64,000 nucleotides of DNA from Perna viridis (taxonomy: Eukaryota). The notes under the pieces are model-generated. The model saw only the letters and a list, made by a program, of their open reading frames with translations. It had not been told where the DNA came from and ran no database searches. Below are positions 29,825 to 64,000 of the stretch, in pieces. The first letter of the stretch is position 1. Every line of letters begins with the position of its first letter. Location of the stretch: positions 35,798,704 to 35,862,703 of the forward strand of contig CM074521.1 of the NCBI GenBank assembly GCA_037379345.1, in the 5' to 3' direction. The position numbers were made by a program, and so were the translations under genes.

Positions 29825-32800
29825 TCAACTGTTGTACAATAATATTTTAGGTTTTTGCTTTCGTATAGATGGTGCTCCATATTGCTCCTGTGCTCGCTTC
29901 AAGAATGAGTTGACCATTTCAACCACAACTTTGTCAAAGAAAACAGTTGCTAGCTGAGAGTGTATGGCATGTCTGAACTCAAAAGATACCTGCAAAGAAA
30001 ATTAAGATTAACAAATGAAGATGAAGTTCTCTTGTTTAAGTTTTCATGCACATCACTGAGTACATCTAAAATATATATGTACTACTGTGGATTGTACTGA
30101 ACAACTGTTTGAAGATTCATTTCAATACAATCAGTAAACAAGCACAACTTACTGACAAATACACAAGCACAACTTACTGACAAATACACAAGCACAGCTT
30201 ACTGACAAATACACAAGCACAGCTTAATGACAGAGACTGTAATTGTACTTATTTTCCCACAATACTTTTTTTTTCATGCTGTCATGCACTATCCACAAAA
30301 ATTGGTACAAGCAAAAGAGTATTTCAACCATCATTCTTTATGCAAAAACTACAATTTCCGCAAATTTAAGTACCTGCAAAAATTAGTACAAATACAGTAG
30401 GTAAAAAATAATATGTCTCACCAAGAAGTAAATACACTTTCTTACAAATGACAAATAGCTTTCCAATGAGAGAAAAACCAAATACAGGAGTCTTCAGATA
30501 TTTAAATTAAGACATTTAAATGACTAACCTTGCTGTTTTAATTCTAATGAAAGTCAAAGGTAAGTATGAGAAGGACAAAGGACTCCTTTTTAGGAATGTT
30601 GGGACACATTATGATAAGTGATAGAAAATATACTCACAGAGAAATCCAGTACACATGTATTTGGATTTTCTGATAAACCAGGACTGAACTGCCATGTTGT
30701 TAACAAATGGTTGAATAGTTTACCATCAGTGCATTCAGACTGTAAAATATTACAAATAATTGTAACAATCAGGCAGTGGATAAAACATGGTATGTAATAA
30801 CTCAATACCTTGACAAGGTAATATGACTATTTGAAACATCAGGATCAAGGAATAAAGACAAGATTTTCTGCTTCAATTTAGTAAAATGAGTTATAATTAC
30901 ATTGAAATGCATTGCAAATGAACATTTCAAGGGCACATAACTCTGTCAAAAACATCAATTTTATAACATTCTATTATAATGAGCAATTTTCCGACAGAAC
31001 TAGTGATGTAGAGATCAAAAATGCATTTCAGTGAAAACTTTATTGACAGAAAGTATATTGTTACAATGTAGATCAGTAGGTTTTCGACATGCATGTTTGA
31101 TTCTTAGAAAGAGTTGTGTGTAATTACATGCAGACATAGTCAATTGATGACATTTATGCCTCGTTAAAAAGTTTTCACTGTCACCTTGGAAATTGATAAG
31201 GTTCTAGATATTAAAAAAAATTAGTATATGCCAAATTTGGTCCAAATATGTTGATGTATATTCACTGTTGATTTATGAGAGTTAACAAGAATTTTAAGGA
31301 CGGACAGACAGAAGAATGGCACTTTGTTTTGTAATTTAATTTTATTATCATTCCCAGGTCCTCATTTTCCAGTGTATTGAATAAATCATTTTTTATGTTA
31401 CTTCTCAGTGGCTAAACTTGTACAAAAATTTTTGTAACACTGTTACTATGTTGGTGCACAAAAAAACACCATTAAATCTATCACCAACTAAAGGAAATGA
31501 AAACAAGCAGAAAATTCCTGAATACATGTGTTCAAAGTGTCATTAATCCCAAAAAACAGTAAAAATGACATTTTCATTAAAATTATCAAAAATTTGTGTA
31601 TATATAAAAAATGTTGTGCGAGGGTTTCTTCATCATTTATTGAAGACCCATGGGTGGCCTTGAGCTGCCATTTTCATCCCTGTGAGGTTGTTGTCCCTTT
31701 GACATATTCACAATATCCATTCTTGTTAAATTTGAAAAAATTGTGAAAATACCCATGCAAGTATGATGTTCCAATAACAGAAGACAAAATTTTACAAAAG
31801 AATTCTTACTCGAACCAAATTAGGTTGGGCTATGGTAACACAAGAAGTGTATCTCTCTGACAAAGGAGGGAATCCAACCTCTAATTTACATTTAAAACTT
31901 CCTGGTTTCCTGCTATAAACCTGTGATTTTTTACACCAAGGAACAAATTCAGTGTATTTCTCAACATCTGCAACAATTTCATACATCTGTTCCATTGAAT
32001 ACCTATATATAAGAAAACAATTTTTTTTATAATAAGGACTTCCTACAGTTATAATGCAATAATGAAGCAATTAATTAAGAAATAAATCGCTGAAACAGCA
32101 TTTTATCATTGTTTTACCACTGGATGGCAATTTATATTGTATTGTTTTACCCCAAGCTATAGCAAGGAATTGAAAATGACATAAATGGCCCATGGTAAAA
32201 AATGACATAAATGGCCAGCCCATGGTAAAAAATGACATAAATGGCCAGCCCATGGTAAAAAATGACATAAATGGCCAGCCCATGGTAAAAAATGATAAAA
32301 TGGCCAGCCCATGGTAAAAAATGATAAAATGGAGTTTCTGTGCTTTATTTATATTCTAATTATTAAATAGGACTAGTTTATTCATATTTTTAATAGACAC
32401 AGCCTATGAGTTGCATGACATGCTGGTCATGTGTTTATCACTTTTTTTACAATGGCTGTGGTCTAAAGAGCTTTGATGCAAGCCATACTCAAATAAAGCA
32501 TTACATATCTAACAGTTCTCAATGGTAAAGAGAAACTATTGACCAAACTTTACGACAAACATGATGTCTTTTCATTCAGAATTGTCAACTTTCCTTTCAT
32601 CTATGGCAACATCCTTTCAGCACCTGCATATGGAGTGTTCATATCACAACTCGTACGTTATGCCAGAGCTTGCCAAAACTTTTTGTATCGCACTAGAATT
32701 CTTGGTGGGTGTTTCTAGAAAAGCAGAAGACGCTTACCCTACTGGTGCACCTGGTCCATGCTCCTAGTTTTTAGTGAAGTCCCAGTTGCTCATTTGCTTT

Positions 32801-37938: not shown

Positions 37939-40900
37939 ATGGCTGCCACAACAAGAGAAGGTTTGGATTTACAAAATAGCTTTTAAATTAAATCAGTGAT
38001 GCTGATAGATTAATCGATATTATATATGACAATACCTATGAATAGTCGGATAAAAATATCGTGTAATACAAGTATATGGTTTTTGAAAAGCCCCATATTA
38101 TCAATGTTTACTGCTTGCATGTCGCTAGTTAAAAATAATGGCAACATACATGTAAATAAAAAACCGACGTCTGTTGTACCTTTATTTTTAATGAATTGCC
38201 CATAGCATGCACTTTTCTGTATAATTTAGCAAATTGTAGGTGTCACTTACCAAACATATTTAGCTAATGTAAATTATGTCTTACTCTTACTTTCACTTAC
38301 CTGCGAAACGTAGCTCTAACGATTTTATTTTGTATTTTCTTAACGTTAGAGTCTAGATCGCAAAATCAAAAAAAAAAAAAAAAGATCAAGAGCTACGATT
38401 TCGCAGCTAACTTTCACTTACGGCAATGTCAATAGACAATTTTATTTGCACAAACACATTTACTGTAAATGGTTATGGCATGAACAAAAACAGAACAATG
38501 TAATATACATTATATATAAAATTTATGACCATGGTGCGACAGTGGTATAAATCTGATCAAAACAGATTAATCTATAGTTGTAACTTTATATATTGATATA
38601 ATTTCTGTTAAAATAAATTGATCTTCAATTCCAACATTCATTCATGAATTTGATAGTTATTTTTAGTATTTCTATAGAGCTACTGTTTAATATATACGCT
38701 ATGACTCTTGGTGTGAGGTGAGGTTTTGATGAAGAAATTAAATTATAGTTGTCCAATTTCGTTCTGTATTGATTGCTTTGTCGTGTGTAGTGGGTGCACA
38801 CCAAGAAGAAATGATATTCATCCTCTATATTCCTACTATCACATGATTACAAGTACGTTTTTTCTCTCTCTGTTTTTGTACCAACCCTTTTCTATTTCTA
38901 GTGCATGTGCACTCAAACAAAATTTACTGATATAGATCTTTCTATTTTAGATTTACATAAATCAGTATATGGAGGTCTTTTAGACAGAATAAATATTTTA
39001 CAGAAAAATGACAGTTTTTCACTCATAGCTAGTGAGCCCACTAATTTTGCTTAAACTGATTGTGTAGTTTTTGTTTGATTCTTTTGATATAAAATTGAAG
39101 ATTATTAAGTTGTAAGTTAAGATGACAGATTCCTAATTTATTTAGTATATTTTTTACATCTGACATCCACAAATTGTTGTTTTTAACTTCTCTGAACATT
39201 TCATATTTTTTACATCTGACATCCACAAGTTGTGGTTTTTAACTTCTCTGAACATTTCATAGACTAGTGTATCAGGGGAGTTGAGGATATGGTTTAAAAA
39301 TTTAATCGTATTCAATTTAACTTTTAGATGAAGAGATGTTCTGTTCAGTTCTGCTAAGCATGCAATGTTTGTAGTTTTATTATTTACTCCATGGATTTCT
39401 TTTATGAATTTCAAATGTAAGTGTTCATATGGGTCAGAGTCACTGAAAGTTTTTCCAGCTCTCCAGACCTCACTTCCATGAAGAATAACAGGTATTACCA
39501 AAGTGTCAAATAACTTTTCAAGTAACTTACGAGGAACATCTATAGATATGACATTTTTTATTTTAAGCCAGGCCTTTCTTCCCTTCTCCATTAGGTTATT
39601 TTTTGATAGATTCAAATTATCATTGTAGTTAAATGTAATGCCCATGTAGCACTAAGATTTTACTGTTTCTAGCATATTTTCATCAATACTGAAGTTGTTG
39701 AGAAAACTTTTTCCATTTGAATTGAATATTATTATTTTCCATTTTTTTGTGTTTACTTCGAGTTTCCATGAAATGTAAAAATCATTATGAATGTTAAGTG
39801 CATTTTGCAGGCCTTTTTCTGTTTCTGACAGCAGAATAATATCATCTGCATACATCAGTGATGTAATTTTTAAAATACCAATTAATATTTGTTCAGTGTT
39901 CCCATTTTTAAGCTGATCAAAAATACCATTTATAAACAGATTAAAAGGGGTTAGACTGAGGACATCACCTTGTTTAACTCCACAACTGGAGGGAAAATAT
40001 TGACTTAAACAGTTTGGGAATTTCATTCGACATTTTGTGTTTTGATAATAGAATAAATGATATTAAAAGTTTTATTCGGGACTTTATGTTTTGATAATAT
40101 ATAGAAGAGGCCCTCTCCCCAAACCGTGTCAAACGCCTTTTTAAAGTCTGTAAAGGTGACAAAGACTTTCTTTTTTTTTGTGACTGGTCTTGATGGGATG
40201 CTTGTTTCAGGGAGGAATTTTTTGGCGCTTTTAGTGGAATTCTGCTATTTCAAATCTGAATTTTTCTGTTACGATTCTTTTTTTACTGTATGTTTTTTTC
40301 CAATTTTGCCAATTTCTGCTTTGTTTTTAGATCTCGTAAATTCATCCCTGTAATGTTTAAATTGGTACAATAACCACACACTAAACATTATTTCATTCAT
40401 TGTATTAATATGAGGAAGGCATTGGCCTTAATTGCGAGCAAGGTCTGAAGCAAAAGTTTCAGGTTCCCTTTTCAACAAATTAGGTTTCATCATGGATCCG
40501 AAAACGGTAAAAAATGCCGGTCATTGACAGACAAATTTTGCATATGACCGACGACAATTTTTTAATATTTGACATAAAAAAATTGTCAACCCTTATAAAT
40601 TAGTTGGCGTGGTTTTATTAGTGTATAAACATCCTGTCTACCAGTCTCCTCATTGTTTATTGGAAATTAATTGACAGGCGTGTCTCAATTTTTGCCGATG
40701 TGCAGCCACCTATGACTGTGATTTACCTGTAACTGATTAGTTGATTGCATAACTGAATTAACGGTACACATGCAGCCCCATTGCATATATGAATTAATTA
40801 AAGTAACTTGGAGAATTTTCATACATTTATTAATTAAGAAAAAAGATTAACAAGTCCACCATTTTCCCGCTGATCTTTCAGAGGTAACGAAAGCACATGG

Positions 40901-43900
40901 AACTGAAACTACGAATCAGTCGTACATGTAGTTTGTAATTATTTTAAATTTGTTGATTAAATCGTTATAACACAGAAGTCAACATACCATTTAAATCAAT
41001 ATACAAAATGTGTTAGCGATTTTCTTATATAAATAATCAACATTTTTTTTTCTTCACTCGGAAGTTTTCGGCTATTTGCCTCTGTGATGAAAAAGTCCGA
41101 GAGATACAATGTTTGGTTTACATGTTGGAACATCCACGTGTGGTCGAAACTCAAACTCGTTGACTCGCTTTGATATTTTGTAAAATACAGAGTATGTGAT
41201 GAAATGACATACTTTCCAATATTTATCTTAAAATAACTACATACAAACGTTTTTTTTTTAAAGTTTATTTTCAAGCTGAGCATGTAAAAGACAAAAATGT
41301 CCAGCATGGGCTGTCAAAATTTCAGGACCCTTAGGCTTCATGTCATTTATCTTTTTGCAAAGTTTTCTTGGAATTTTTCATTAGTTATTTAAATAATTAG
41401 TTACAAGATTAAAATGTATCTATATATCATTATATAGAGTCTGCCAAAAAAATACTTTAAACATCTTCATTATTACTGGTTTTTGAATGCAATTTGATGT
41501 AGGGATGGAGAAGGTATATTAAAAAAAATTATCCTGGAAATTTTTATTTCTTATTTTTTGTTTTTATCGTGAAAAAAATGGAAGTCTTGGATAAGTTATT
41601 ATCATGTATTTCATTCTTATCATGGGCCTTAAAATTTAAATTACCTCTTAGTCCCTCCTGATAATAATTCAACTCGATATTTTATTGGAAAAACGACATA
41701 CATTTTTAATACAGTAATCATATGGTTGCTTTCTTTTGGTCACATTAGACTGTTGTTTTAGGAGATTTTACATTTGGATATTGATACTGTATGTGACACC
41801 TAGTTAAAAGTTTTGATGCAATTTTTACTACGGAAGGAAAGTGGAGTTGTTATTATTTGCCACCAGCTGTGCTCAAGAAAATATCTGAATCCATTGTTGA
41901 AAAAAAACATGATTTCTTTTTCAGAGATAGAAGAACAAGTGCGACATTTACAAAATAAGAAAAAGAAGCTGACAGAAGAAGAGGATGTTGAAGTCAACAA
42001 AGTAGGATTAGGGGCTGAAGGTCACTATGATACAGATATTTACAGTGCTAGTGGAAAGTTTGAAGGATATGTCACATCTATTGCTCCTAATGAAGAATTG
42101 GATGTAAGTACATTGTATGTTAAATGTGTATTAGGACAATATCAAGAGTGAAAACAGTATTTCATCAATAAAATTGGGATTGAACAGAATTCAGTATAAA
42201 ATTTATTCAGTAATAGGTTTGAAAGAATGCTTTAAAGGCAGGATAAATAAATATTTATATGAATAACCAATAAAAACATTTCAATGATTAATGATACATA
42301 CTGGGAAACTATCGTCAGGAGAAACAGCTTTATTTCGGAGGTACACATACTTCAAGGCAAACGATATCACTGCTCAAGTAATAAATTGTATGTCCAGCTT
42401 GGTAGAAAAAAATAAACAAATGAAAATATTAGATTTAAAAAAAAATCATTTATATGTTACAGGATGATGATGATATTGGGGCAGGTTACCAGAAGAGAGG
42501 GTCATCGTATACAGCACCGCTCAATTTTCTAAATGACACTGCTAATGACAAGGTGAAAAACAGAGTGGATATTCAGATTTATATTCAAATTGTTTAAAAA
42601 ATTTGTAAATTTTATTATCGAGATTCAAGAATTATAATAATAAAACTTTCGATACGATATTATAAATTATACATTTTGCACGATCCCTTTATAAACTTAT
42701 AATCACATTCTGATATACTACTCATCACTTCCCCTAGTTTATATGCTTTGCTGAACAGGAAATGAAAAAAAGAAACATTATAGAATGTGATTTTAGCACT
42801 GAGTGTGGAAGAGGTGTCAAAACTGAAGTAGGAACTATACACTCTACACATGAGATTGCATTAGGCATTGAATGATAATTATTTGTTTTATTATTTTACA
42901 GGACTATGATCCTATGGCTGAGCACAGAGCTCCAAAGATTGCTGAGCGAGAGGGAGAATATCGAGCTAGAATGAGACAGAGAATTATCTCCCCTCCCAGA
43001 TACGATCCTTTTGCTGATGGTTGGTATCTTTCTTTTGTTTTCTGTTAACCTTAATAATACTACTTAAGAATTGAACTCTTTCAAACAATAACTGTAGGGA
43101 TATATGTACCATTAATTAAAAAAAAAATCGGGAAATTTTGAAACTGAAAAATAATATTTATATGGGTTTTGCAGAATTTTGTGGTATAATTCTCTGGAGT
43201 TAAAGTTTGAAATTGTTCTTCATTAAATTGTTGGGATTTGTTTTTAAATGTAATTCAGATCCAATCATATCTCAAAAATATGTTGCTAAAATGGTTTGTA
43301 ACAGTATGTTTGAACTGTGATTTTTTCACTTTATGAGATTTTTTCGTTGTGTTTAAATTTTGATGACATGTCTACCAAGAGTTTTCAGAGTAACAGCCAC
43401 AAATACTACTATTTAGACAAAAAACATTGAGGAAACAAAATTTTAACAGCCCCTGTTAGGATGAGATCTGCCTACTTCGTCACATTTTAAGCTTTGTAAA
43501 GTATTTTTCAAAATAGTTGATTTTTATGGCTTAGTAAAATGTTGATCAATGGATTCCAATTATTTGATTGGTTAAAGAAATATTATCAATGATTTGTGGT
43601 TTCCATTTGAAACATTGAAATTTACTAATGACATGTTATTGTCATGTGATTACATTCTGAATAATCTAATAGGTAAGACAGGTTTTGTTTTATTTTGATA
43701 TTTTTAAATATTTTTGGGGGATACTATGTGTACTGCATTGCATCACGCTATGATAGAAACTTTAAGTTGATCTGATTAAACAACCTTATTAGCAATTGAA
43801 GTACTTCATTTTCATACATTTCCTTTGGTCAGCCTTTGGCAACCTTGTTTTTTTACAAGTTTCTCACTTCTTATTTATAATGAAATTTTATAAGCTTTGA

Positions 43901-46900
43901 GTAGTTTTTTGGTCTTCCTTAGTAACTATGGATATAAAACTAGACTTGCTTTCATTGTTGGTGATACAGGTAACTAACTTAAGGGAAAAATTTTGTTTTT
44001 GTTTCCATTTAAACTTAAAATTCGACTTATTGATTCTTAGTATTGTTTATTTGGCAGTAAATGTAAAGAACATCTCCCTTTATGACAGTAAATGTAAAGA
44101 GCATCTCCCTGTATGGCAGTAAATGTAAAGAATATCTCCCTTAATTTCTTTCGTTACATATTCATCTGGAAAAATTACACAGCGGGAAGATTTATTACTT
44201 TTCATTTCATTTCTGGTTAAATTATGTATTTTTTGGGTAGGGGGTGTAGGTACAGAATAGAATTTTTATGAAATGTTGTGTACAAATCAGAGAATCAGTT
44301 TAAGAATGAAAAGATGAGAGATGAAGAAGAATGAATGGTTATGAGAATGCATGCACATAAGATATTTGCTTATTTATACACAAATCACAGTGGAAAAGAT
44401 TTTAATATTAGTTATCTTTCCTTTCTAGCGACCAGAGGTTCTGTGGAGAGGACTGAAACAGAAACACATCTTAAAATGAGGTGGTTTACCTCAAGTTCAA
44501 CATCAATTTTACCTTAAACCTTTATGGCTTTATCCCCAAGCACTTATCTTTAAATGTTTAAACATTTGATAGTTTGTGACTAGTGTTTAGGAATAAGAGC
44601 TATTGTACTTAAGTTTAGCAGCTTGAATGTCTAACACACAAAGTTTTCGAGTCTTTTATTTTTCTCTTTTGGCGTAATGATGAAGGTAACAAACTTCAGG
44701 TATAAAATATAATCAGTAGAAATTTTTTTATTTTTATATCTTGGAAAAATTGTGATAAGAGAATTACATGATAAACAACAAATAAGACCCCTCTGAATGT
44801 GTGTCTACATAGTGTGATAGAAAAAGATTTACTATATTAATATGAGACTAATTTTAGGATTATTGGATGCAGGTTATTGATGGTGAAATGAGAAGATACA
44901 CGGAAGCGTACGTATGAATAATGGTCAAATGGTAAAAATAGGCACAACTAATGCTGGAATGGTGACTAGATGCTTCATTTTAGCAACTGTCAGATATGGA
45001 CATATGAAAGTACTATCTATTTTGGATACTGTAATTAATGGGTATGAACTGAGGTAGTGATGCAAAAATAACTTATTATTGACCTGTTTGGACATCCCTA
45101 TGATCTCACTGGTGTTTGTGTGATCATTCCAGCATTAGAACAGTTCACAACTTTCCACAACATCATTGGAGTAATCAAGTGTTTTCTGTACTTTTTTTCC
45201 TTGTGAAGAGAATGTACTTTAGATTCATTTCTAAATAGGTGGTTGTGAACTGTTCAAGTTGTCATAGGATTTGTTTTGAGTAAAATGTTAAAATTTCATC
45301 TTTATTTATTGATTGAAGTCTCATTCTTGTACTTATTTTCTGTATGTCACGGCCGTGTGTCGTGACATTTTTTCTTTATATTTTCAGGCGGGAAAACACC
45401 AGACATCAATGCCAGAACATTCTCCAAGGTCATGGTCAGTCAGCAACTGGACAGAGAAAAGGTTAATATCACTAGTGAAATGTACTTAGTGTTTATACAA
45501 GCATGTTTGTTTGTTTGTTGGGGTTTAACGTCCGAGCAGCAATGTTTCAGCTATATTCAGACGATTTTATGCAAGCATAAAATATAAAAAAGCACACATC
45601 CTTTTTTACTCTAAACATTATGGGCCATATATTTATATTGTAAAGTTCAGATAATAATATGACCAGTATAAAAATTACTCGTACAGGTTTTGAAAACTTC
45701 TGATTATTGTATGGCAAATTAATGTAAACCTGCAAAAAGCTGTGGTTAAAAGATGTCTGGCATTTTACATAGAAACTAAACATTGATTCTTAAAAAGTCT
45801 AGGACATAATCCCCTATCTTATAATAAGCATAATGTTAATGTAAAAATATTTTTGTTTTGTTTTTTTGTTTGGTTGGTTTTTTTTGTGTGTATTTTTAAA
45901 AATTTTTCTTTTGTTGTGACAGTTCCTTTTATATTGGTACTGCATTTTATTTGTGTTTGTCTTTTTTTGTGTAATTTTTAATGCTATTTGGTGTATATGG
46001 GAAGTTTTTGTTTGAATTAAAATGGTTCAATTTCTGTGTATTTTTTTCAAGGGTTTACTCATTTTATATTCGATGTTATATTTCTTATTATCAGAATCAT
46101 TTGAAATTTCATCAATGAAATAAGAAAAGCTGCCAGTAATACACTTTTTAAAAAGAAAATAAAATGACTGTTTTTAGATATATTTTTAAAGAATGTATAT
46201 TCAACAACTGTTATCATTTTATTGATAAAATATTGTCTTAAAAAGAAACGAAAAGTTAAAATGTAAACAATTTAGAAATTAAATTTCAAATTTTGCACTT
46301 CCAGTACTAATAGAAATATTCTTCATAATTGATTAAATAATTTCTCACGGGGGGAGGCTTTTTTCCTGATCCCCTTAACTTGAAGTGTTTTATTTATTTC
46401 GTTGTGATTGCTGTAAGATACCATAAGGTTAAGGAGCAATGATTCTGCTAATATTTGTCTAGGTACCTTGATCTTCATGATTTGTATAATATACTGTAGA
46501 AGTTTACAACGTTTAATTAAAATGATACATTATGATTTGAAGTAGTTGTTGTGATTCTAGTCACTATAATTTAATGACATGATTTTTATTTTTATTTTTT
46601 CAGAAACTTTTGGAGAAACAGATGCAAGAAAAAGCCAAGGATGGAAGTCTAAAGCCTGTAAATGGTTCACAACCAGATGCTTCAGCACAGAAGGTTCAAG
46701 CTGCTGCTGCTGCTGCTGAGAAGAAAAAACGTAGATGGGATCTGTCTGCTGAAGATACACCTCAAACCAAAAAGGCTAAAAGTGGATGGGAAGAAGCTGT
46801 TACACCCTCTAACACTCGCTGGGACGAAACACCTGGCAGACAGAAAGGGTCTGAGACTCCTGGGGCTACACCTGGACAAAGTACAAGACAGTGGGACTCT

Positions 46901-49900
46901 ACACCAAGTCACCTGACACCTGGGGCCACCACACCTGGACGTGGAGAAAGTACACCTGGTCATCAGGCCACACCTAGTGCAAGAAGAAATAGATGGGATG
47001 AAACTCCAAGGACTGAAAGAGGTAAGTTGGTGAAATAGGTGGGATGAAACACCATCGACTGAAAGAGGTAAGTTGTCATTAACATGAAAAAGCCTTTATT
47101 AGAATTAAGAATTTTGTTTTGCAAAATAAAGAGGAAAAAGGGTTTATATTGCATTGGTAAAAATGATAATTGCTGCAATTGAAGTATTGCATTATTTTAT
47201 AAATAAATATTATGTTTACAGAAAGAGCTGTTGTTACTGTAGGTTTGTTTACTTATACATAAATATACGTGAACACTGAATCAGCTGATGTTGATATCTT
47301 TTTCCAGAAACTCCGGGTCATGGTAGTGGATGGGCAGAAACTCCAAAAACAGATAGAGGTGGTGACCTCATCCAGGATACCCCCACTCCAGGTGCCAGCA
47401 AGAGACGTTCTAGATGGGATGAAACTCCAGGTGCAACACCAAGTGGTGCAGCTTCTGGAAGTGCAACACCTAGTGGACAGACACCTGGTGGATTAACACC
47501 AAGTATGACACCAGGGGGGACAACTCCAGGTGGATCAACACCAAGTGGTTTTACCCCCGGTGGACAAACACCAGCTGGGTTTACACCTAGTGGTACTACT
47601 CCTGTTGGACCCAAGGCTATGGCCATGGCCACACCTTCTCCCAATCAGCTGATGTCAATGACACCAGAACAGTTACAGGCCTATACATGGCAGAGAGAAC
47701 TGGATGAGAGAAATAGACCAATCACTGATGATGAGCTGGATGCCATTCTTCCACCTGGTTATAAGGTAATTTACAATGGAAAACCCAATAGGATGATTAT
47801 ATATGACCAAAACGAACTGATCTTAAACACTTTGCTAGGGTTTTATTAGATGAACATATTTGTACCAAAGCAGTGTGTAGAGGTATTAGTAAAAGTTTAT
47901 GAATCTTTCAATATGACAAGAATAACAGACTCAATTCCATTGAAGTAGAAATAGATTTTTCAGAATGTTGATAAAACATTGAACCTAACAACACAGCATT
48001 CTGTAACTTCAGTAAAGTAATTGATGATCTGTATAATATGTATTCTGTCATAATATTCAGAAATTGTCTATTTGCAGGTTTTAACTCCACCAGCTGGTTA
48101 TATTCCTGTCAGAACCCCAGCCAGACGTTTGTTAGCCACACCCACACCTATAGCAGGTACTCCAACAGGTTTCCGTATACAGACACCAGACAACAAAGTC
48201 CAAGTTGTAGATATGCAGCCCAAAGGCAATCTGCCCATGATGAAACCTGATGACATGCAGTACTTTGACAAGTTATTAGTAAGTGTTTATTGTCTTCAAC
48301 CATTATTTAACTATTTGAAAAAGAGATGACTAAAATAACTGTTGATATATTTTTAGTGGCATACTTAATTGCACAGAAAAAGAAATCTAATATGATGAAC
48401 AATCCCATTCATATTAAGAATCATAAAATTTTGTTATTGAGTGAAAAAAAAAATAGAATGCTATTATCTGAAGAGCTTCCAATTATAGTTGGTGTAATCA
48501 TTTTTTCATATATGCTTTAATAAAAAATGAATGGATAATGACATGATATAGTCTTTAATACAAATCTAGCTTGCATTAAATAAGCAGTTTACCAGAAATT
48601 TTGACAGATTAAGAATACCATATAGAGAGTAATTTTCCTGGGTGAAAAATGTTGGTATTTGCCCTATGAAATGGGGTATTAAATTTTTGTGGTCTTTTGT
48701 TTTAGCATCTTCAGATTTAATGGAATTAAAATATACGTAAAAATATCTGGACTTCAATTTGGGAAGCATTTATATTCATAATTCCTCAAACTGCAAGTAT
48801 AGTGAAAATTGGGACCTCACAGAAATTTCCTGCCCTACAGTATACTGAATGACAATAAATTTGGTATGTTTGTATATATAGGTTGATGTTGATGAAGAAG
48901 CATTGAGTGCTGAGGAACAGAAAGAAAGAAAGATCATGAAGCTTCTCCTGAAGATAAAGAACGGAACTCCTCCTATGAGAAAGGTAATGGACTTCATTAT
49001 ATACATGTAGCTCATGTTAGATGTATGTAAAATTGAACTGTTTTGATGTCCCAGGCCTTCTTGTTTTAATTTTGTAACCCCTTCAAACAAAGTTTTTTTG
49101 ATATATATAGGCATTGGGCATTTATCCATATTTAGATGTGAATGAAGAAATTAAACTATTTTAGAGGACTCCAAAGAGAGATAATCTATCATAAAAGTTT
49201 TACATTGAACTTTGGATGCTGGGGTATTCTCAGGGGTATTCTCTTTGTGAGCTTTAGCTTGAGCCATAACAAATAACAATTTATAAGTATCTAAGAAGAA
49301 ATAATAGGAAATCCTGTTTATTTCATTGTTCTTTTTTAAGAAAATAAGTTGATGTAATTAAGAATAATGAATATTCATCCTAATTGTTCCCTGTATTCAG
49401 ATATTTTTTTATTTCAGGCTGCACTACGACAAATTACTGACAAAGCAAGAGAATTTGGAGCAGGTCCTCTTTTTAACCAAATTCTCCCCTTACTTATGTC
49501 CCCAACCCTTGAGGACCAGGAGAGACATTTGTTGGTAAAAGTCATTGACAGAATACTGTACAAACTTGATGATTTGGTACGACCGTATGTCCATAAGATT
49601 CTTGTTGTTATAGAACCTTTGTTGATTGATGAAGACTACTATGCCAGAGTGGAAGGCAGAGAAATCATCTCTAATTTAGCAAAGGTAAGGATACATGTAT
49701 ATCTTGGTGATTTGTAAATGAATCTAAGCTGTGACCTTAGAATCACAGAGGGTATGATTTCAGTCTGACAGGTTCTATATTAAAGTCGAAATATGGAAAA
49801 ACATGAGCTGCAGACAGGGCGTCCCAAGTCTACTAAGATCTAGTGATTTATCTGTGGATAAGGCCTTTTTTAATTGTTAATTTCCTCGTACAGGTTATGC

Positions 49901-52900
49901 CTGCCTAAAATAGAAATTAAATATGGAACCAGAATAATGGGATAAGGACTTACACCTTTGCAGGCCAATTAATAAATTTTGTTCAATTAAATATACAAAC
50001 GATTATGCTACACATTTGTCTTATATCTTAACTTCAAACATGGAGTTGTTAAAAATGCTCTTTAATATTTATGATAAGATTTTGCTTATCTTTTGCCCTT
50101 GTTTATAAAATGAATTTAAACAAAAATGGATTGTATACTTTCAGGCTGCTGGTTTGGCCACTATGATTTCCACAATGAGACCTGATATTGACAATATGGA
50201 TGAATATGTCCGTAACACAACTGCTCGAGCCTTTGCTGTGGTAGCCTCAGCCCTCGGTATCCCCTCCCTACTGCCTTTCTTGAAGGCTGTGTGTAAGAGT
50301 AAGAAGAGTTGGCAGGCTAGACATACTGGTATAAAGATTGTACAACAGATAGCCATATTGATGGGTTGTGCTATACTGCCTCATCTGAAGAATCTGGTGG
50401 AAATTATTGAGCATGGTAAAATTTCTAGCTAACATAAGTTGTTCATTTTCTATTTTTGTGTTATTTTGAACAGAAAAAAAAAACATTGCGGTGTGCTAGA
50501 AACACATTGCAAAGTAAAAAAAAACATAAAGAAAGTGTTGCAAGTGAAGAATTGTGAAGTCCTGAGAGATCCTTTTTTTTTTAATAAAATGCTTGGTAAG
50601 TTATCCATTTCAGATGACGAGCACATACACACATGTAAATACAGCTTTATTTACCTTCTTAAACAAGTACTTATTTTGCCATATTAACTATGTCTTTGTA
50701 AGAATCAGGCAAAATAAGAAAAAGCAGAAACCTGCATGTAAAAACTCAATTATCTGAAAATATTATTCCACTCAAAGATGATTTCACTATTTGAAAAGAC
50801 CACTCTGTGATTTCTGTATGACTGGATTTGGTGAGAAATTTTTCAATAGAATGTTAGAAAAATGAGGTTTTTGACAGAGTAATCTGCCCTTGAAATGTTC
50901 ATTTTCTGTGCATTTCAATGAAATTATAACTCAGTTTACTAAAGTGATAGGGAAAATCTATTTTTTTTCCTTGATTCTGATGGTGCAAATACTGTTAAAG
51001 TGTCATTGTTCGTGGGGTACTAATTTTCATGGTTTTCTTGGGTTTGATAAACTTTGAAATTTAGTTCCTAACAAAAAGGAAATTTCCCATGCATTTGTAT
51101 GATGTAGTTTTCAAATCCATGAAAATTCAAGAATTTATGAACTTAAGGTTTTTCACTAAAAGTGGTACCCATGAATTTAAGTTCTTTCACTGTAGTCACA
51201 TTAAACTCTCAAAATTGTGTTTTTTATATGATGTTTCACCCACTGCCTGATTCTTATAGAGCCTGACATTGTATGTATTATTGCAGGTTTAGTAGATGAA
51301 CAACAGAAGGTACGTACCATCACAGCTTTAGCTCTGGCTGCCTTGGCAGAAGCTGCTACTCCCTATGGTATTGAATCCTTTGACAGTGTACTCAAACCTT
51401 TGTGGAAGGGTATCAGACAACATAGAGGAAAGGTTAGTAATTAGATACTTGCAATTGCACATTAGTTAAATTAGAATATTGTTGAGAAAAAGACCCATGT
51501 TTCCAAAATTAAGCAATCAGTTTTATTGTTCAACCAAAAGGACTCATATTAAACTGACTGCCATTAACTGCCAAGATTTAAGGAGTGTGTGGAGCTTGTT
51601 ACTTTCATGAGTTAATTCTTCAAGGGTTTTCAGCATATATTGTTATTCTGAAATAAATTTTCATTTTTGGCAGATTTATATTCCAAATCGAATGAAGTTA
51701 AATGTCGCATTGGCGAGAGAAAGTCTAATAGTGAAACTACCAAATTTATTTCACATGTTATTCATCAAAACATCTTACACAGGGAACGATTAATAATTTA
51801 CTGCTCTATATATGAGAAAGCCACTTAAATTTCTTTCCAAGTTGTAGTTCCAATGATGGATACTAGTGATTTTGTTAGGTACTATTAACAGTATTTTGAG
51901 GGACTTGCTGCTTTCTTGGAGGTCAATAGGTTATTCTGAAAGTACTATTGTACATGGGGTATTTTCGTGGAGATTACTATTGATGTTTATTCTGAAAACC
52001 TCAAAACCACACATTCAAGAATCATACATGAAAATTAGTATCCAGGAATTAAAGTAGTTTCACAGTACCTTATTCCTTGATGGATGCTTAATTTGCTAAA
52101 TACTACATGTATATGTAGATCTGTATCAATTTTAGGTTTAAGATGCTTTCTTGAAAGCCATTGGTTACCTTATTCCCTTGATGGATGCAGAATATAGTAA
52201 TTACAAAATGTATTTATGGATCTGTATCTTTTTTTAGGGTTTAGCTGCTTTCTTGAAGGCCATTGGTTACCTTATTCCTTTGATGGATGCTGAATATGCT
52301 AATTACTACATGTATTTATAGATTTGTATCTTTTTTTTAGGGTTTAGCTGCTTTCTTGAAGGCTATTGGTTACCTTATTCCTTTGATGGATGCTGAATAT
52401 GCTAATTACTATACCAGAGAAGTCATGTTGATCCTGATCAGAGAGTTCCAGTCTCCTGATGAAGAAATGAAGAAAATTGTATTGAAGGTTGGTCATTTGA
52501 TTTCGTATGTCTGTAATCCATTTTAAAATTCTTTGGTTCTTGTCCAACTCTTTCATTCTTGTCCATTTTGTTGCTCTCTGTTAGAATATGGTGAATTTAG
52601 TGTCCAATTTTATATTCCCCTTTTTTCCTTTCACTTCTAAACAGCTAGAGAGTTCCAAAGTTTTTTTTTATATAAATAGTTAACTTTTATAAATGTGCTG
52701 TATATTTCTTCTTGTATTTTATTTTGCATGTGTACATTTATGAATATATCTTTATAGTCTCTCATAATTCTTAATAGAATAGCACTTGTTTACTGCTTTT
52801 CATACTTTTATGTCTTTTATTGTTGACTTTTAAGCATAAGTATGTTGTCTAAATTGTGGTAATGTATATGTTGTACAACTGGTGAGACTTTAATAAAATA

Positions 52901-58900: not shown

Positions 58901-59292
58901 ACAAAAAAAACTACTAGATATCGGCTTGAAAAAGGTTTATACTCCATTTATAACAAATGATAATTTAATGTATGTTATGTTTTTATTATGTCTTACTTGA
59001 GCAAGTTTTACAGTTATTAGCAATATCAAATTAAAAATGTAAGATATAGTAAGATTTGAGTAATTCTTGATGTAAGTCAGTGATTGTTTGTTTTCTCGTC
59101 ACAATATTTAGTACTTTTATCTTTTGTTGTCAGGGTTTGTTTCATCCAGCCAGAAAGGTACGAGATGTATATTGGAAGGTCTATAATACAGTTTACATTG
59201 GCGCCCAGGACAGTATGATACCTGCCTATCCCAGAATACCCAACGATGTTAAAAACAGTTACCTGAGATATGAATTGGATTATGTCTTGTAG
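37939..59292 (+). CDS. SF3B1: Splicing factor 3B subunit 1 (U2 snRNP), 20 coding exons, 1345 aa
   Basis: Exons 37939-37960, 41925-42103, 42463-42552, 42902-43019, 45388-45461, 46604-47021, 47308-47765, 48078-48278, 48882-48983, 49418-49684, 50145-50415, 51287-51432, 52341-52487, 53153-53500, 54762-54944, 55473-55651, 56928-57113, 57862-58134, 58561-58777, 59134-59292. Total 4038 nt, all GT-AG and phase-consistent. RWDETP motifs, TP repeats, HEAT region ([27 protein letters not shown]...[10 protein letters not shown]). Exon 1 (MAATTRE) is the least certain. Confidence 0.97.
38298..38409. mobile_element. 112 bp TIR mini-element with 9 bp TSD
   Basis: actttcact|tacctgcgaaacgtagctct ... agagctacgatttcgcagcta|actttcact. 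Confidence 0.7.
38720..40350 (-). pseudogene. 5'-truncated, frameshifted non-LTR retrotransposon RT (CR1/L2-like) in SF3B1 intron 1
   Basis: [36 protein letters not shown]...[32 protein letters not shown], broken by stops and frameshifts. Confidence 0.9.
44053..44141. repeat. ~31 bp tandem repeat, 3 copies
   Basis: cagtaaatgtaaagaacatctccct units. Confidence 0.85.
45503..45563 (-). mobile_element. 3' tail fragment of the SINE-like family seen at 9159-12522
   Basis: Reverse complement matches tctgaatatagctgaaa.attgctgctcggac.ttaaac at 12468-12510. Confidence 0.8.
52066..52411 (+). repeat. ~103 bp tandem array of the SF3B1 exon-13 acceptor junction
   Basis: AG at 52134-35, 52236-37 and 52339-40 (real), each followed by ggtttagctgctttcttgaa-like exon sequence; a partial copy starts at 52066. 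Confidence 0.93.
55728..56312 (+). mobile_element. Helentron-type non-autonomous element with internal repeats
   Basis: ttatacccctc...gagggtat subterminal IR, tgtccg-like microsatellite, 3' hairpin gtgagc...gcttac, repeated ctactcatcac units. Confidence 0.65.
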
Positions 59293-62814: not shown

Positions 62815-64000
62815 TTAATGTCCTGACAGATCAGTCAGCAACTTTCTAATATTATCACTCATATTACTGTTAAATATATCATAGCCAGTATCATTTAGGT
62901 GGACACCATCGTCACGGTACAATGATCTGTTGACATTTCTGATGTCGGGATGGTGTATCATGAATCCTCCAACAGACTCGAGGACAGGTCTGAGGAGTTT
63001 ATTGATATATATTCGCTCCTCCTCCCCCTCCTCGTTACTTGGAGCACCTCGCCAATTGATCCTCGACAAAATCTCATTATAAATGATTGTTGTGTTAGGA
63101 CAAGTTTTTTTGATAGTACCTAGGTCTGTTTTAACCATCCTGACAAAGTCCTTTGGCCTGACATAACCGACATCATTGGACCCGACATATAGCATTAAGA
63201 CATCAGGAGGAGGTTTACATCTTACAAGTTCATGTAGTTTAGGTAGAAGTCCATTCCATCTCATTCCCCTGGTTCCATACCATTCTATTAAAGCATCTGA
63301 GGTCCTGATGCCGAGGTTGATATCACGTTGTTGTGATACTCTCTTGTGAGCCCAGAACACTATTGATGATCCTACTATCGAAATGGATGCTGAATTTCAA
63401 ATTATAAATCTACTTTAACATACACACACAAAGGAAGGAAACCACATAACTAATAAGATAAAATCAAAATCTTTAAAGTTTCTTCATATTGAATATCTTA
63501 TTTCAAGATGAATGAATATACTTGATTTAAGAACAGACATTAATACATTTCAATTCATCTTATTTTTTTTAAATAATATACATATTAATCTATTCAGATG
63601 TATAGCAGTAATAATGTGTTAATCTCTAAGTAGAAAGTTGATTTTTATTGTCTGTTCAGTATTACATTACCCAATATGGTAAATTATATTAATTACAAAG
63701 AACATTAGAATAATATCTATAAGTAGATAAAAATGATAAGTACATGAACTAACTTCTGGCCCCTCGTTCCCTCATTCCTGGAGTCATATCAGCTGATTGT
63801 AACCATCCCTTTACTGGGGGTGTGTTTATTGATCCACGCCTGTGGTTTGACCTTTCCCTTGACATTGATCTACTCCTAGATGACCTGTAGTAATCTGACC
63901 TCTTTCTCTCATTTGACCTAGACCTTTCTCTTGGTCTCCTTGACCTTATAGGGGATTGACTTCTTGACCTACTTTGAGAAGAAGCATGGGAATAATCTGA
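62815..64000 (-). CDS. 3' end of an unnamed gene: RS-rich exon spliced to an SGNH/GDSL hydrolase exon
   Basis: Exon >64000-63754 is open (SRSRSQSPIRSRRPRERSRS...RSSRSRSMSRERS), ends phase 1 at A|gttag. Exon 63389-62815 follows ttcag, phase 1, and encodes IVGSSI (block I), RGM (II), VGSND (III), DGVHL (V). Confidence 0.82.

Follow-up and report, generated by a model that had tools for sequence, protein, structure and literature searches.

SF3B1 is the branch-point-binding core of the U2 snRNP (small nuclear ribonucleoprotein) and, among splicing factors, the one with the most frequent mutations in myelodysplasia (PMC5029572). Intron 4 of the human gene harbours the decoy exons E4a-E4f, with E4e foremost among them (Parra et al. 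2018, PMC6097662; Parra et al. 2020, PMC7373989), and blocking the E4e donor lowers retention from ~26% to 3% (PMC7373989). Decoy-type retained introns, in which an internal non-coding cassette promotes retention, have also been described for OGT and ARGLU1 (PMC6097662). Two further systems are of relevance here: in SF3B3, a stem-loop with concealed branch sites precedes a poison exon (Li et al. 2024, PMC11162794), and ultraconserved pseudo-5' splice sites are known, for example in ENOX1 (Ding et al. 2026, PMC13100119). The present analysis concerns SF3B1 intron 4 of the mussel Perna viridis, which lies in a 64,000-nt stretch of contig CM074521.1 (assembly GCA_037379345.1), called the window below; positions are those of the window.

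An initial annotation had put this intron forward as a candidate invertebrate counterpart of the human decoy module. We judge it to be a genuine and conserved representative of the SF3B1 decoy system that bears an additional structural element. Among the parts originally proposed, one exon turned out to be conserved and apparently used, a first cryptic exon (CE1) and a donor at 43673 lie outside the module, and another cryptic exon (CE2) is tentative. The human decoy system is reported to be conserved only to fish (PMC6097662, PMC7373989). SF3B1 appears only in the form of primers in the examined portion of the PMC11162794 supplement and is absent from the six searchable of the seven supplements of PMC13100119; the available portions of PMC5959240, PMC5029572, PMC7080807, PMC8831459 and bioRxiv 2025.06.26.661736 hold nothing on SF3B1 intron 4. 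Searches of the open-licence PubMed Central and bioRxiv literature returned the two human papers (PMC6097662, PMC7373989) and neither an invertebrate report of an SF3B1 decoy system nor an acceptor hairpin, and as far as these searches reach, decoy-driven retention of SF3B1 is in print for vertebrates only.

Partial retention of SF3B1 intron 4

The window contains a complete SF3B1 gene on the forward strand, with 20 exons, an ATG at 37939 and a stop at 59292, encoding 1345 amino acids without an internal stop. Exon 6 is 84% identical to the Mytilus cluster and at most 72% identical to other bivalves, which places the host among the mytilid mussels. According to the gene model and RNA joints, exon 4 (DYDPMAEHR...YDPFAD) occupies 42902-43019 and exon 5 (GKTPD...) 45388-45461; the phase-1 intron 4 between them (43020-45387, 2368 nt) separates YDPFAD/G from GKTP. 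This agrees with the initial annotation, which had given the intron the same position, length and interruption (DPFAD/GGKTP) and called it the longest after intron 1; with intron 1 measuring 3964 nt, it is second in length among the 19 SF3B1 introns. Human intron 4, which the annotation had placed at the same position, does lie there to judge by vertebrate models, whose divergence sets in just before GKTPD. Read-through from exon 4 into intron 4 meets a stop at 43046-43048.

Sequencing runs were searched with the region 41900-47800, chosen so that the share of its words present in a run would be informative. Twenty runs contain the region, 17 of them small (six studies) and three genome-sized. 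The predicted word share is 0.61 for the exons plus intron 4, 0.40 for the exons plus intron 5 and 0.20 for the exons alone; the observed share was 0.57-0.60 in the small runs and 0.72-0.82 in the genome-sized ones. Runs X21-X23, which bear the same species label, hold next to none of these words, which is evidence neither way. Contigs were placed on the region for three small runs (X1, X3 and X11) and one genome-sized run. In each of the three small runs, contigs skip introns 2, 3, 5 and 6 at GT..AG, and these runs therefore represent spliced RNA. Intron 4 is both skipped, by the exon 4-exon 5 joint, and spanned, by contigs running from 42991 to 45416, in all three.

Contig depth was 134.5, 53.5 and 27.1 for the skipped form (X1, X3 and X11 in turn) and 24.9, then 76.3 and 58.8, then 8.6 and 15.6 for the spanned form. 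This corresponds to retained shares of 0.16, 0.59 and 0.24-0.37, which are rough values, contig depth being a poor measure and the runs having been picked for containing the stretch. An intron of more than 1 kb is thus retained in three of three spliced-RNA runs while its neighbours (introns 2, 3, 5 and 6 as controls) are spliced. Intron 4 of mussel SF3B1 is retained in part of the RNA, which goes against the constitutive splicing that the initial annotation had named as a refuting outcome.

The probable decoy exon and the acceptor hairpin

The cryptic exon CE3 (44858-44907, forward strand, 50 nt) carries a stop at 44878-44880. Its acceptor (44841-44857) lacks a pyrimidine tract and contains a branch-like ACTAAT that places its A (44851) just 6 nt ahead of the last letter of the AG; this acceptor is matched with at most one mismatch in locus L070 and in eight of ten annelid-like loci (see below). 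The donor GTACGTAT (44908-44915), with overlapping GT sites at 44908 and 44912, has only one copy in the window, and the pattern of acceptor plus donor is single-copy in the 723-Mb genome. In run X3, an intron contig ends at 44908 and the next one starts at 44879, a 30-nt overlap as at the true exon 4 donor, and the downstream contig starts at 45388 rather than at 45387. The depth bins tested in this run leave unexplained residuals (1270 and 4872) only at those two breaks, besides small repeat- or variant-related ones near CE1. From these contig ends and the residual depth we infer that the decoy donor is joined to exon 5 (44907-45388) at a depth of ~45, the row of the joint itself lying outside those listed. 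Model P0127 of Mytilus galloprovincialis ends in DPFADGLLEAGIHGD, as compared with GLLDAGY-stop in the window, and matches exon 4 joined to 44858. Of the two cassette junctions, that with exon 4 is hence seen in the Mytilus annotation only and that with exon 5 is indicated in one of the three runs.

For Mytilus and numerous other invertebrates, RefSeq has X2 isoforms (protein models) that begin in exon 5, and models beginning at the exon 4/5 border or beyond it are found in mussels, scallops, oyster, gastropods, nemerteans, chelicerates, a hemichordate and a starfish. Those of scallop and Babylonia begin with M-R right before exon 5, and those of Gigantopelta and Patiria have other short leaders (P0003, P0005, P0139, P0009, P0096), which may point to yet another exon or donor that is spliced to exon 5.

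A pattern for the exon 5 acceptor retrieved 57 metagenome loci, of which 41 are SF3B1; the 16 without an SF3B1 protein match were dropped. The pattern demanded a CAG acceptor and R-T-Y/F, so that TAG acceptors were missed, and no vertebrate was found. By best protein match, three loci are clam-like, one belongs to another lophotrochozoan, ten are annelid-like and seven termite-like, the rest being other arthropods or unplaced. GTACGTAT is present upstream of exon 5 in 23 of the 41 loci (0 antisense), namely in 14/14 mollusc/annelid-like and 6/7 termite-like loci as well as in L052, L058 and L095. Introns lacking it comprise three beetle-like and three Daphnia-like ones, two of the latter with GTATGTAT instead, and L056, L041, L042 and L071. 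In the beetle-like loci L044, L068 and L084, intron 4 measures 166-167 nt and carries neither decoy donor nor hairpin; the module has apparently been lost there. Orthologous decoy exons are 49-94 nt long, with an in-frame stop in 12 of 12 tested. The intron thus holds an internal cassette with its own acceptor, donor and premature stop, and the splice sites of this cassette are conserved, the human donor having been compared by eye.

The morpholino target of human E4e (PMC7373989) contains the same eight letters as GTACGTAT, and 15 of 18 letters of the E4e donor region are identical to the mussel decoy by eye. Fig. S1 of PMC6097662, if its chunks are read reversed, appears to show the 56-nt E4e exon of Table S1 with a similar acceptor. 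Judged by these similarities, the mussel exon at 44858-44907 is likely the orthologue of human decoy E4e. One cryptic exon is conserved, its range reaching from molluscs and annelids as far as insects and, in a comparison by eye, human E4e; the refutation tests of the initial annotation came out in its favour. The claim of a third exon starting at 44858 finds support as to its use (the indicated X3 joint and P0127) and its conservation, the tandem donors at 44873 and 44932 being without a conserved match.

The second element, missing from the initial annotation, is a conserved hairpin of 10 bp with a 5-nt loop (45344-45368, forward strand). A gastropod-like Logan protein (P0049) that reads through the intron end including the hairpin led us to this stem. 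Its folding energy is -13.6 kcal/mol (z -4.4, 0/200 shuffles), the only case beyond z -2.0 among the 19 SF3B1 introns, and it is single-copy in the 723-Mb genome. Folding of 45290-45420 as a whole gave z -0.88, only the local hairpin being stable. The 3' arm holds an invariant GTGAC with a branch-like A at 45365 (-23) and adjoins the pyrimidine tract; a further branch-like site lies upstream at 45330-45336 (forward strand; A at 45335, -53). In the orthologues, the invariant GTGAC sets its A at -20 to -26, and a second branch-like motif is found at -38 to -66, with stronger ACTAA-type motifs just upstream of the hairpin.

Orthologous hairpins have z values of -2.6 to -5.6 in mollusc/annelid-like loci and of -0.6 to -3.1 in termite-like ones, where they are shorter. 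A hairpin model (R1) matched 14/14 mollusc/annelid-like loci, ten of which were its training set and the other four near-duplicates; it did not detect the shorter termite hairpins, which rest on alignment and folding. Across 14 distinct hairpin sequences, 108 of 108 cells are paired, and in two of eight pairs both partners have changed. All 500/500 shuffles fall below the covariation score of 0.326; this control ignores relatedness. There is thus a conserved stem-loop with pair-keeping changes near the acceptor. Among the within-species variants listed, 14 fall into 43020-44803 and 0 into 44804-45387, the last 584 nt of the intron (P ~0.02).

Other cryptic sites and features of the gene

Intron 4 had been described as rich in splice signals. 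With a splice-site matrix built from the gene's own 19 introns, which is rough (the conserved donor at 44908 scores only -0.3), we counted 10 donors (shuffle mean 7.6, reached by 46/200 shuffles), 13 acceptors (14.6, 143/200) and 13 pseudo-exons (9.6, 48/200), beside six CTAAY motifs (5.0, 78/200); the remaining SF3B1 introns equal or exceed these densities. An enrichment of splice signals in intron 4 was therefore rejected, all four classes being at chance level against shuffles and the sister introns against it. The listed acceptors and donors are found at their places, except that the GT of the donor given as 44933 starts at 44932. Four donors, at 43673 (the orphan donor of the initial annotation), 44686, 44873 and 44932, have no conserved match and were discarded as module parts.

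CE1 (47 nt), CE2 (52 nt) and CE3 (50 nt) each lead to a premature stop. CE1 (43923-43969, forward strand) is a chance exon outside the module, with an acceptor score of -3.6. Its last 31 nt and donor (43939-43982) are the terminal 44 nt of a dispersed repeat with 44 genome matches at up to two mismatches, vs 0 in the control, ~18 of them in one tandem array. Being repeat-derived, CE1 was rejected as a decoy, and the original remark that no transposon was recognised in the intron is not borne out. Further copies of the repeat share 200-250 nt upstream. This repeat, of at least 200-250 nt, ends in a small stem-loop and an A-rich tail (L010, L012, L018-L024, L037-L039), and its end makes up a 59-nt tandem array on contig C2. 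CE2 (44429-44480, forward strand) may tentatively be regarded as a second cryptic exon on account of its acceptor, which agrees in 13/13 letters with clam locus L083, where the distance to exon 5 is comparable (E 5.5), within a block common to two clams (E 5.6e-5); no conserved donor and no contig break in the three RNA runs examined was found for it. Intron 4 also includes 2.8 tandem copies of a 31-nt unit (44055-44142). No Rfam family reached its gathering score in 42900-45500, the single match being at chance level (E 0.15, 23.5 vs 54 bits).

Elsewhere in the gene, intron 1 carries degraded LINE-like reverse-transcriptase frames (39154-40249, reverse strand), judged from the text of the open reading frames (ORFs). 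Very high-copy repeats occur in intron 5 (45504-45565 and 46000-46330), with a summed depth of up to 3 million in the genome-sized run. Exon 6 shows a 3-nt in-frame deletion allele in an alanine run at 46700 (run X3), and its end including the donor is duplicated in a 46-nt tandem (46986-47075), of which RNA contigs use the first donor. In intron 12 (52066-52448), 3.4-3.8 tandem copies of a 102-nt unit duplicate the acceptor of this intron together with the first part of exon 13, placing extra AG sites before the true acceptor. Upstream of SF3B1 lies an exon resembling what we take, from its ORF text, to be a COQ10/START-domain gene (31792-32070, reverse strand), and downstream a 193-aa SGNH-esterase-like ORF (62815-63396, reverse strand).

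Proposed mechanism, alternatives and relation to known systems

We consider it probable that the stop-carrying mini-exon and the acceptor hairpin of the partly retained intron 4 together constitute the decoy-exon brake seen in human SF3B1, for which an origin in the bilaterian ancestor is predicted. According to our proposal, the mini-exon donor would bind U1, and its odd acceptor would bind U2/SF3b yet splice poorly. The decoy would then occupy the sites at the ends of the intron, with full retention as the main outcome and leaks in the form of exon 4-decoy and decoy-exon 5 joints leading to early stops; such competition with cross-intron pairing is proposed because of the human experiments (PMC6097662, PMC7373989). 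The hairpin would hide the nearer branch-like A (-23) and crowd the pyrimidine tract, rendering the true acceptor slow enough for the decoy to compete. That it may hide a branch site and make the acceptor sensitive to U2 is suggested because of the SF3B3 case (PMC11162794).

Several observations weigh against this proposal. The run data are unstranded contigs guessed to be RNA, none being on record as such, and X1 has low cover (4-6) on introns 3 and 6 too. A break of the 44907-45388 type is lacking in X1 and X11, and among the joints listed none connects exon 4 with the decoy in X1, X3 or X11. The 41 loci include many duplicates and amount to about five independent positive lineages; GTACGTAT also occurs four times in 84.5 kb downstream, and 11 of 21 complete introns are without it. 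In 20 of the 41 loci no hairpin was found, and when the termites are left out, only one of 11 pairs has changed on both sides. A prosimian model (P0102) that seems to read through the intron end is without a trace of the hairpin arm; this hints weakly at a structure confined to protostomes.

The decoy acceptor would depend on U2 pairing, such that more SF3b would give more decoy engagement and less productive mRNA. We put the chances that SF3B1 exerts negative feedback through intron 4 at about even; the available portions of PMC6097662 and PMC7373989 contain no test of SF3B1 sensing its own level via this intron. For this step alone, and compatible with those of the decoy and the hairpin, the same anatomy may instead answer to tissue, stage or stress via other RNA-binding proteins and not to the SF3B1 level, an alternative that we rate slightly below an even chance. 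Retention in human depends on cell type and differentiation (PMC6097662), and the rough retained shares of 0.16-0.59 between studies point the same way, whereas the two conserved elements are features of branch sites within the very gene that encodes the branch-site-binding protein, and the SF3B3 structure responds to U2 factors (PMC11162794), which argues against this alternative.

The mini-exon could also be mainly a poison exon for nonsense-mediated decay, retention being a by-product of slow splicing around it. The stops in 12/12 orthologous exons, the annotated inclusion form in Mytilus and the SF3B3 precedent (PMC11162794) would suit this explanation, and decay would hide inclusion joints in ordinary RNA. 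We nevertheless regard it as quite unlikely: the full-length intron is a substantial assembled form in 3/3 runs, the decoy donor in X3 is apparently joined to exon 5 while the upstream part is unspliced, and in human cells blocking of the E4e donor removes retention. It is very unlikely that the hairpin alone weakens the acceptor and thereby causes retention, or aids splicing by bringing an upstream branch point nearer to the AG, with the decoy secondary. Its conservation with covariation and the branch-like motifs just upstream of it in the orthologues speak for such a role, but the decoy donor is more widely kept, being present in human and in L052, L058 and L095, where no such hairpin was found. 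An artefact of DNA or nascent RNA in the runs combined with chance motifs, as the missing RNA record and the chance-level overall splice-signal density might suggest, is already largely refuted by neighbouring introns that are nearly bare and bridged by joints and by two elements, each with one copy in 723 Mb, that come up again in orthologous introns.

The decoy-exon brake might be elaborated further, although we think this rather unlikely: decoy and hairpin would each be one half of a single RNA switch that predates the protostome radiation, its balance set by SF3b/U2. The last 15-20 nt of the decoy would pair across several hundred nt either with the acceptor hairpin or with the branch site, so that one is opened and the other masked. 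In the window, the hairpin region has its best partner in the decoy end, 0 of 448 other intron stretches binding as well (shuffle p 0.002-0.03), and five of the six annelid-like loci examined behave alike (p up to 0.016 with tails of 15-20 nt). Termite-like loci give a borderline result, with the branch motif as the partner, and in two clams and L070 the pairing is absent. This test was post hoc and the register differs between lineages; we treat the long-range pairing as a lead only. If true, the branch-point reader would itself be subject to a homeostat based on RNA structure.

A donor with identical letters in human, mussel, worms and insects would date the brake before the protostome-deuterostome split, more than 550 million years ago. 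Conservation reduces the module to a few short motifs that can be tested, and the hairpin is an undescribed structural element at the productive acceptor. With decoy and hairpin, the question of how SF3b levels are kept steady becomes accessible to small minigenes, insects included.

OGT and ARGLU1 are different genes that share cassette-promoted retention with SF3B1, a homeostatic input having been shown for OGT and not for SF3B1. ENOX1-type sites resemble the mussel donor in that a short donor-like motif is kept in a homologous intron from vertebrates to insects; these pseudo-sites are never spliced, whereas the mussel donor appears to be used. SF3B3, like SF3B1, encodes an SF3b subunit, and in both genes a hairpin kept across distant animals hides branch-like adenosines in its 3' arm, with stems of 14-17 bp in SF3B3 vs 7-14 bp in SF3B1. 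The SF3B3 hairpin precedes and represses a poison exon; that of the mussel does not lie directly upstream of one but precedes the productive coding exon 5, 436 nt downstream of the decoy donor, and the likeness is one of presumed working only. Compared with human SF3B1, with six decoys in ultraconserved blocks of 125-200 nt, the mussel has one clear decoy with short conserved ends, as well as an acceptor hairpin of which the available portions of the human papers make no mention. Function has been tested in human, whereas the mussel module is known from sequence and RNA contigs. Both species have in common the gene, the intron position, a long retained intron, a stop-carrying exon (50 nt in mussel, 56 nt for human E4e) a few hundred nt before exon 5, a donor identical in eight letters and an acceptor that is similar by eye.

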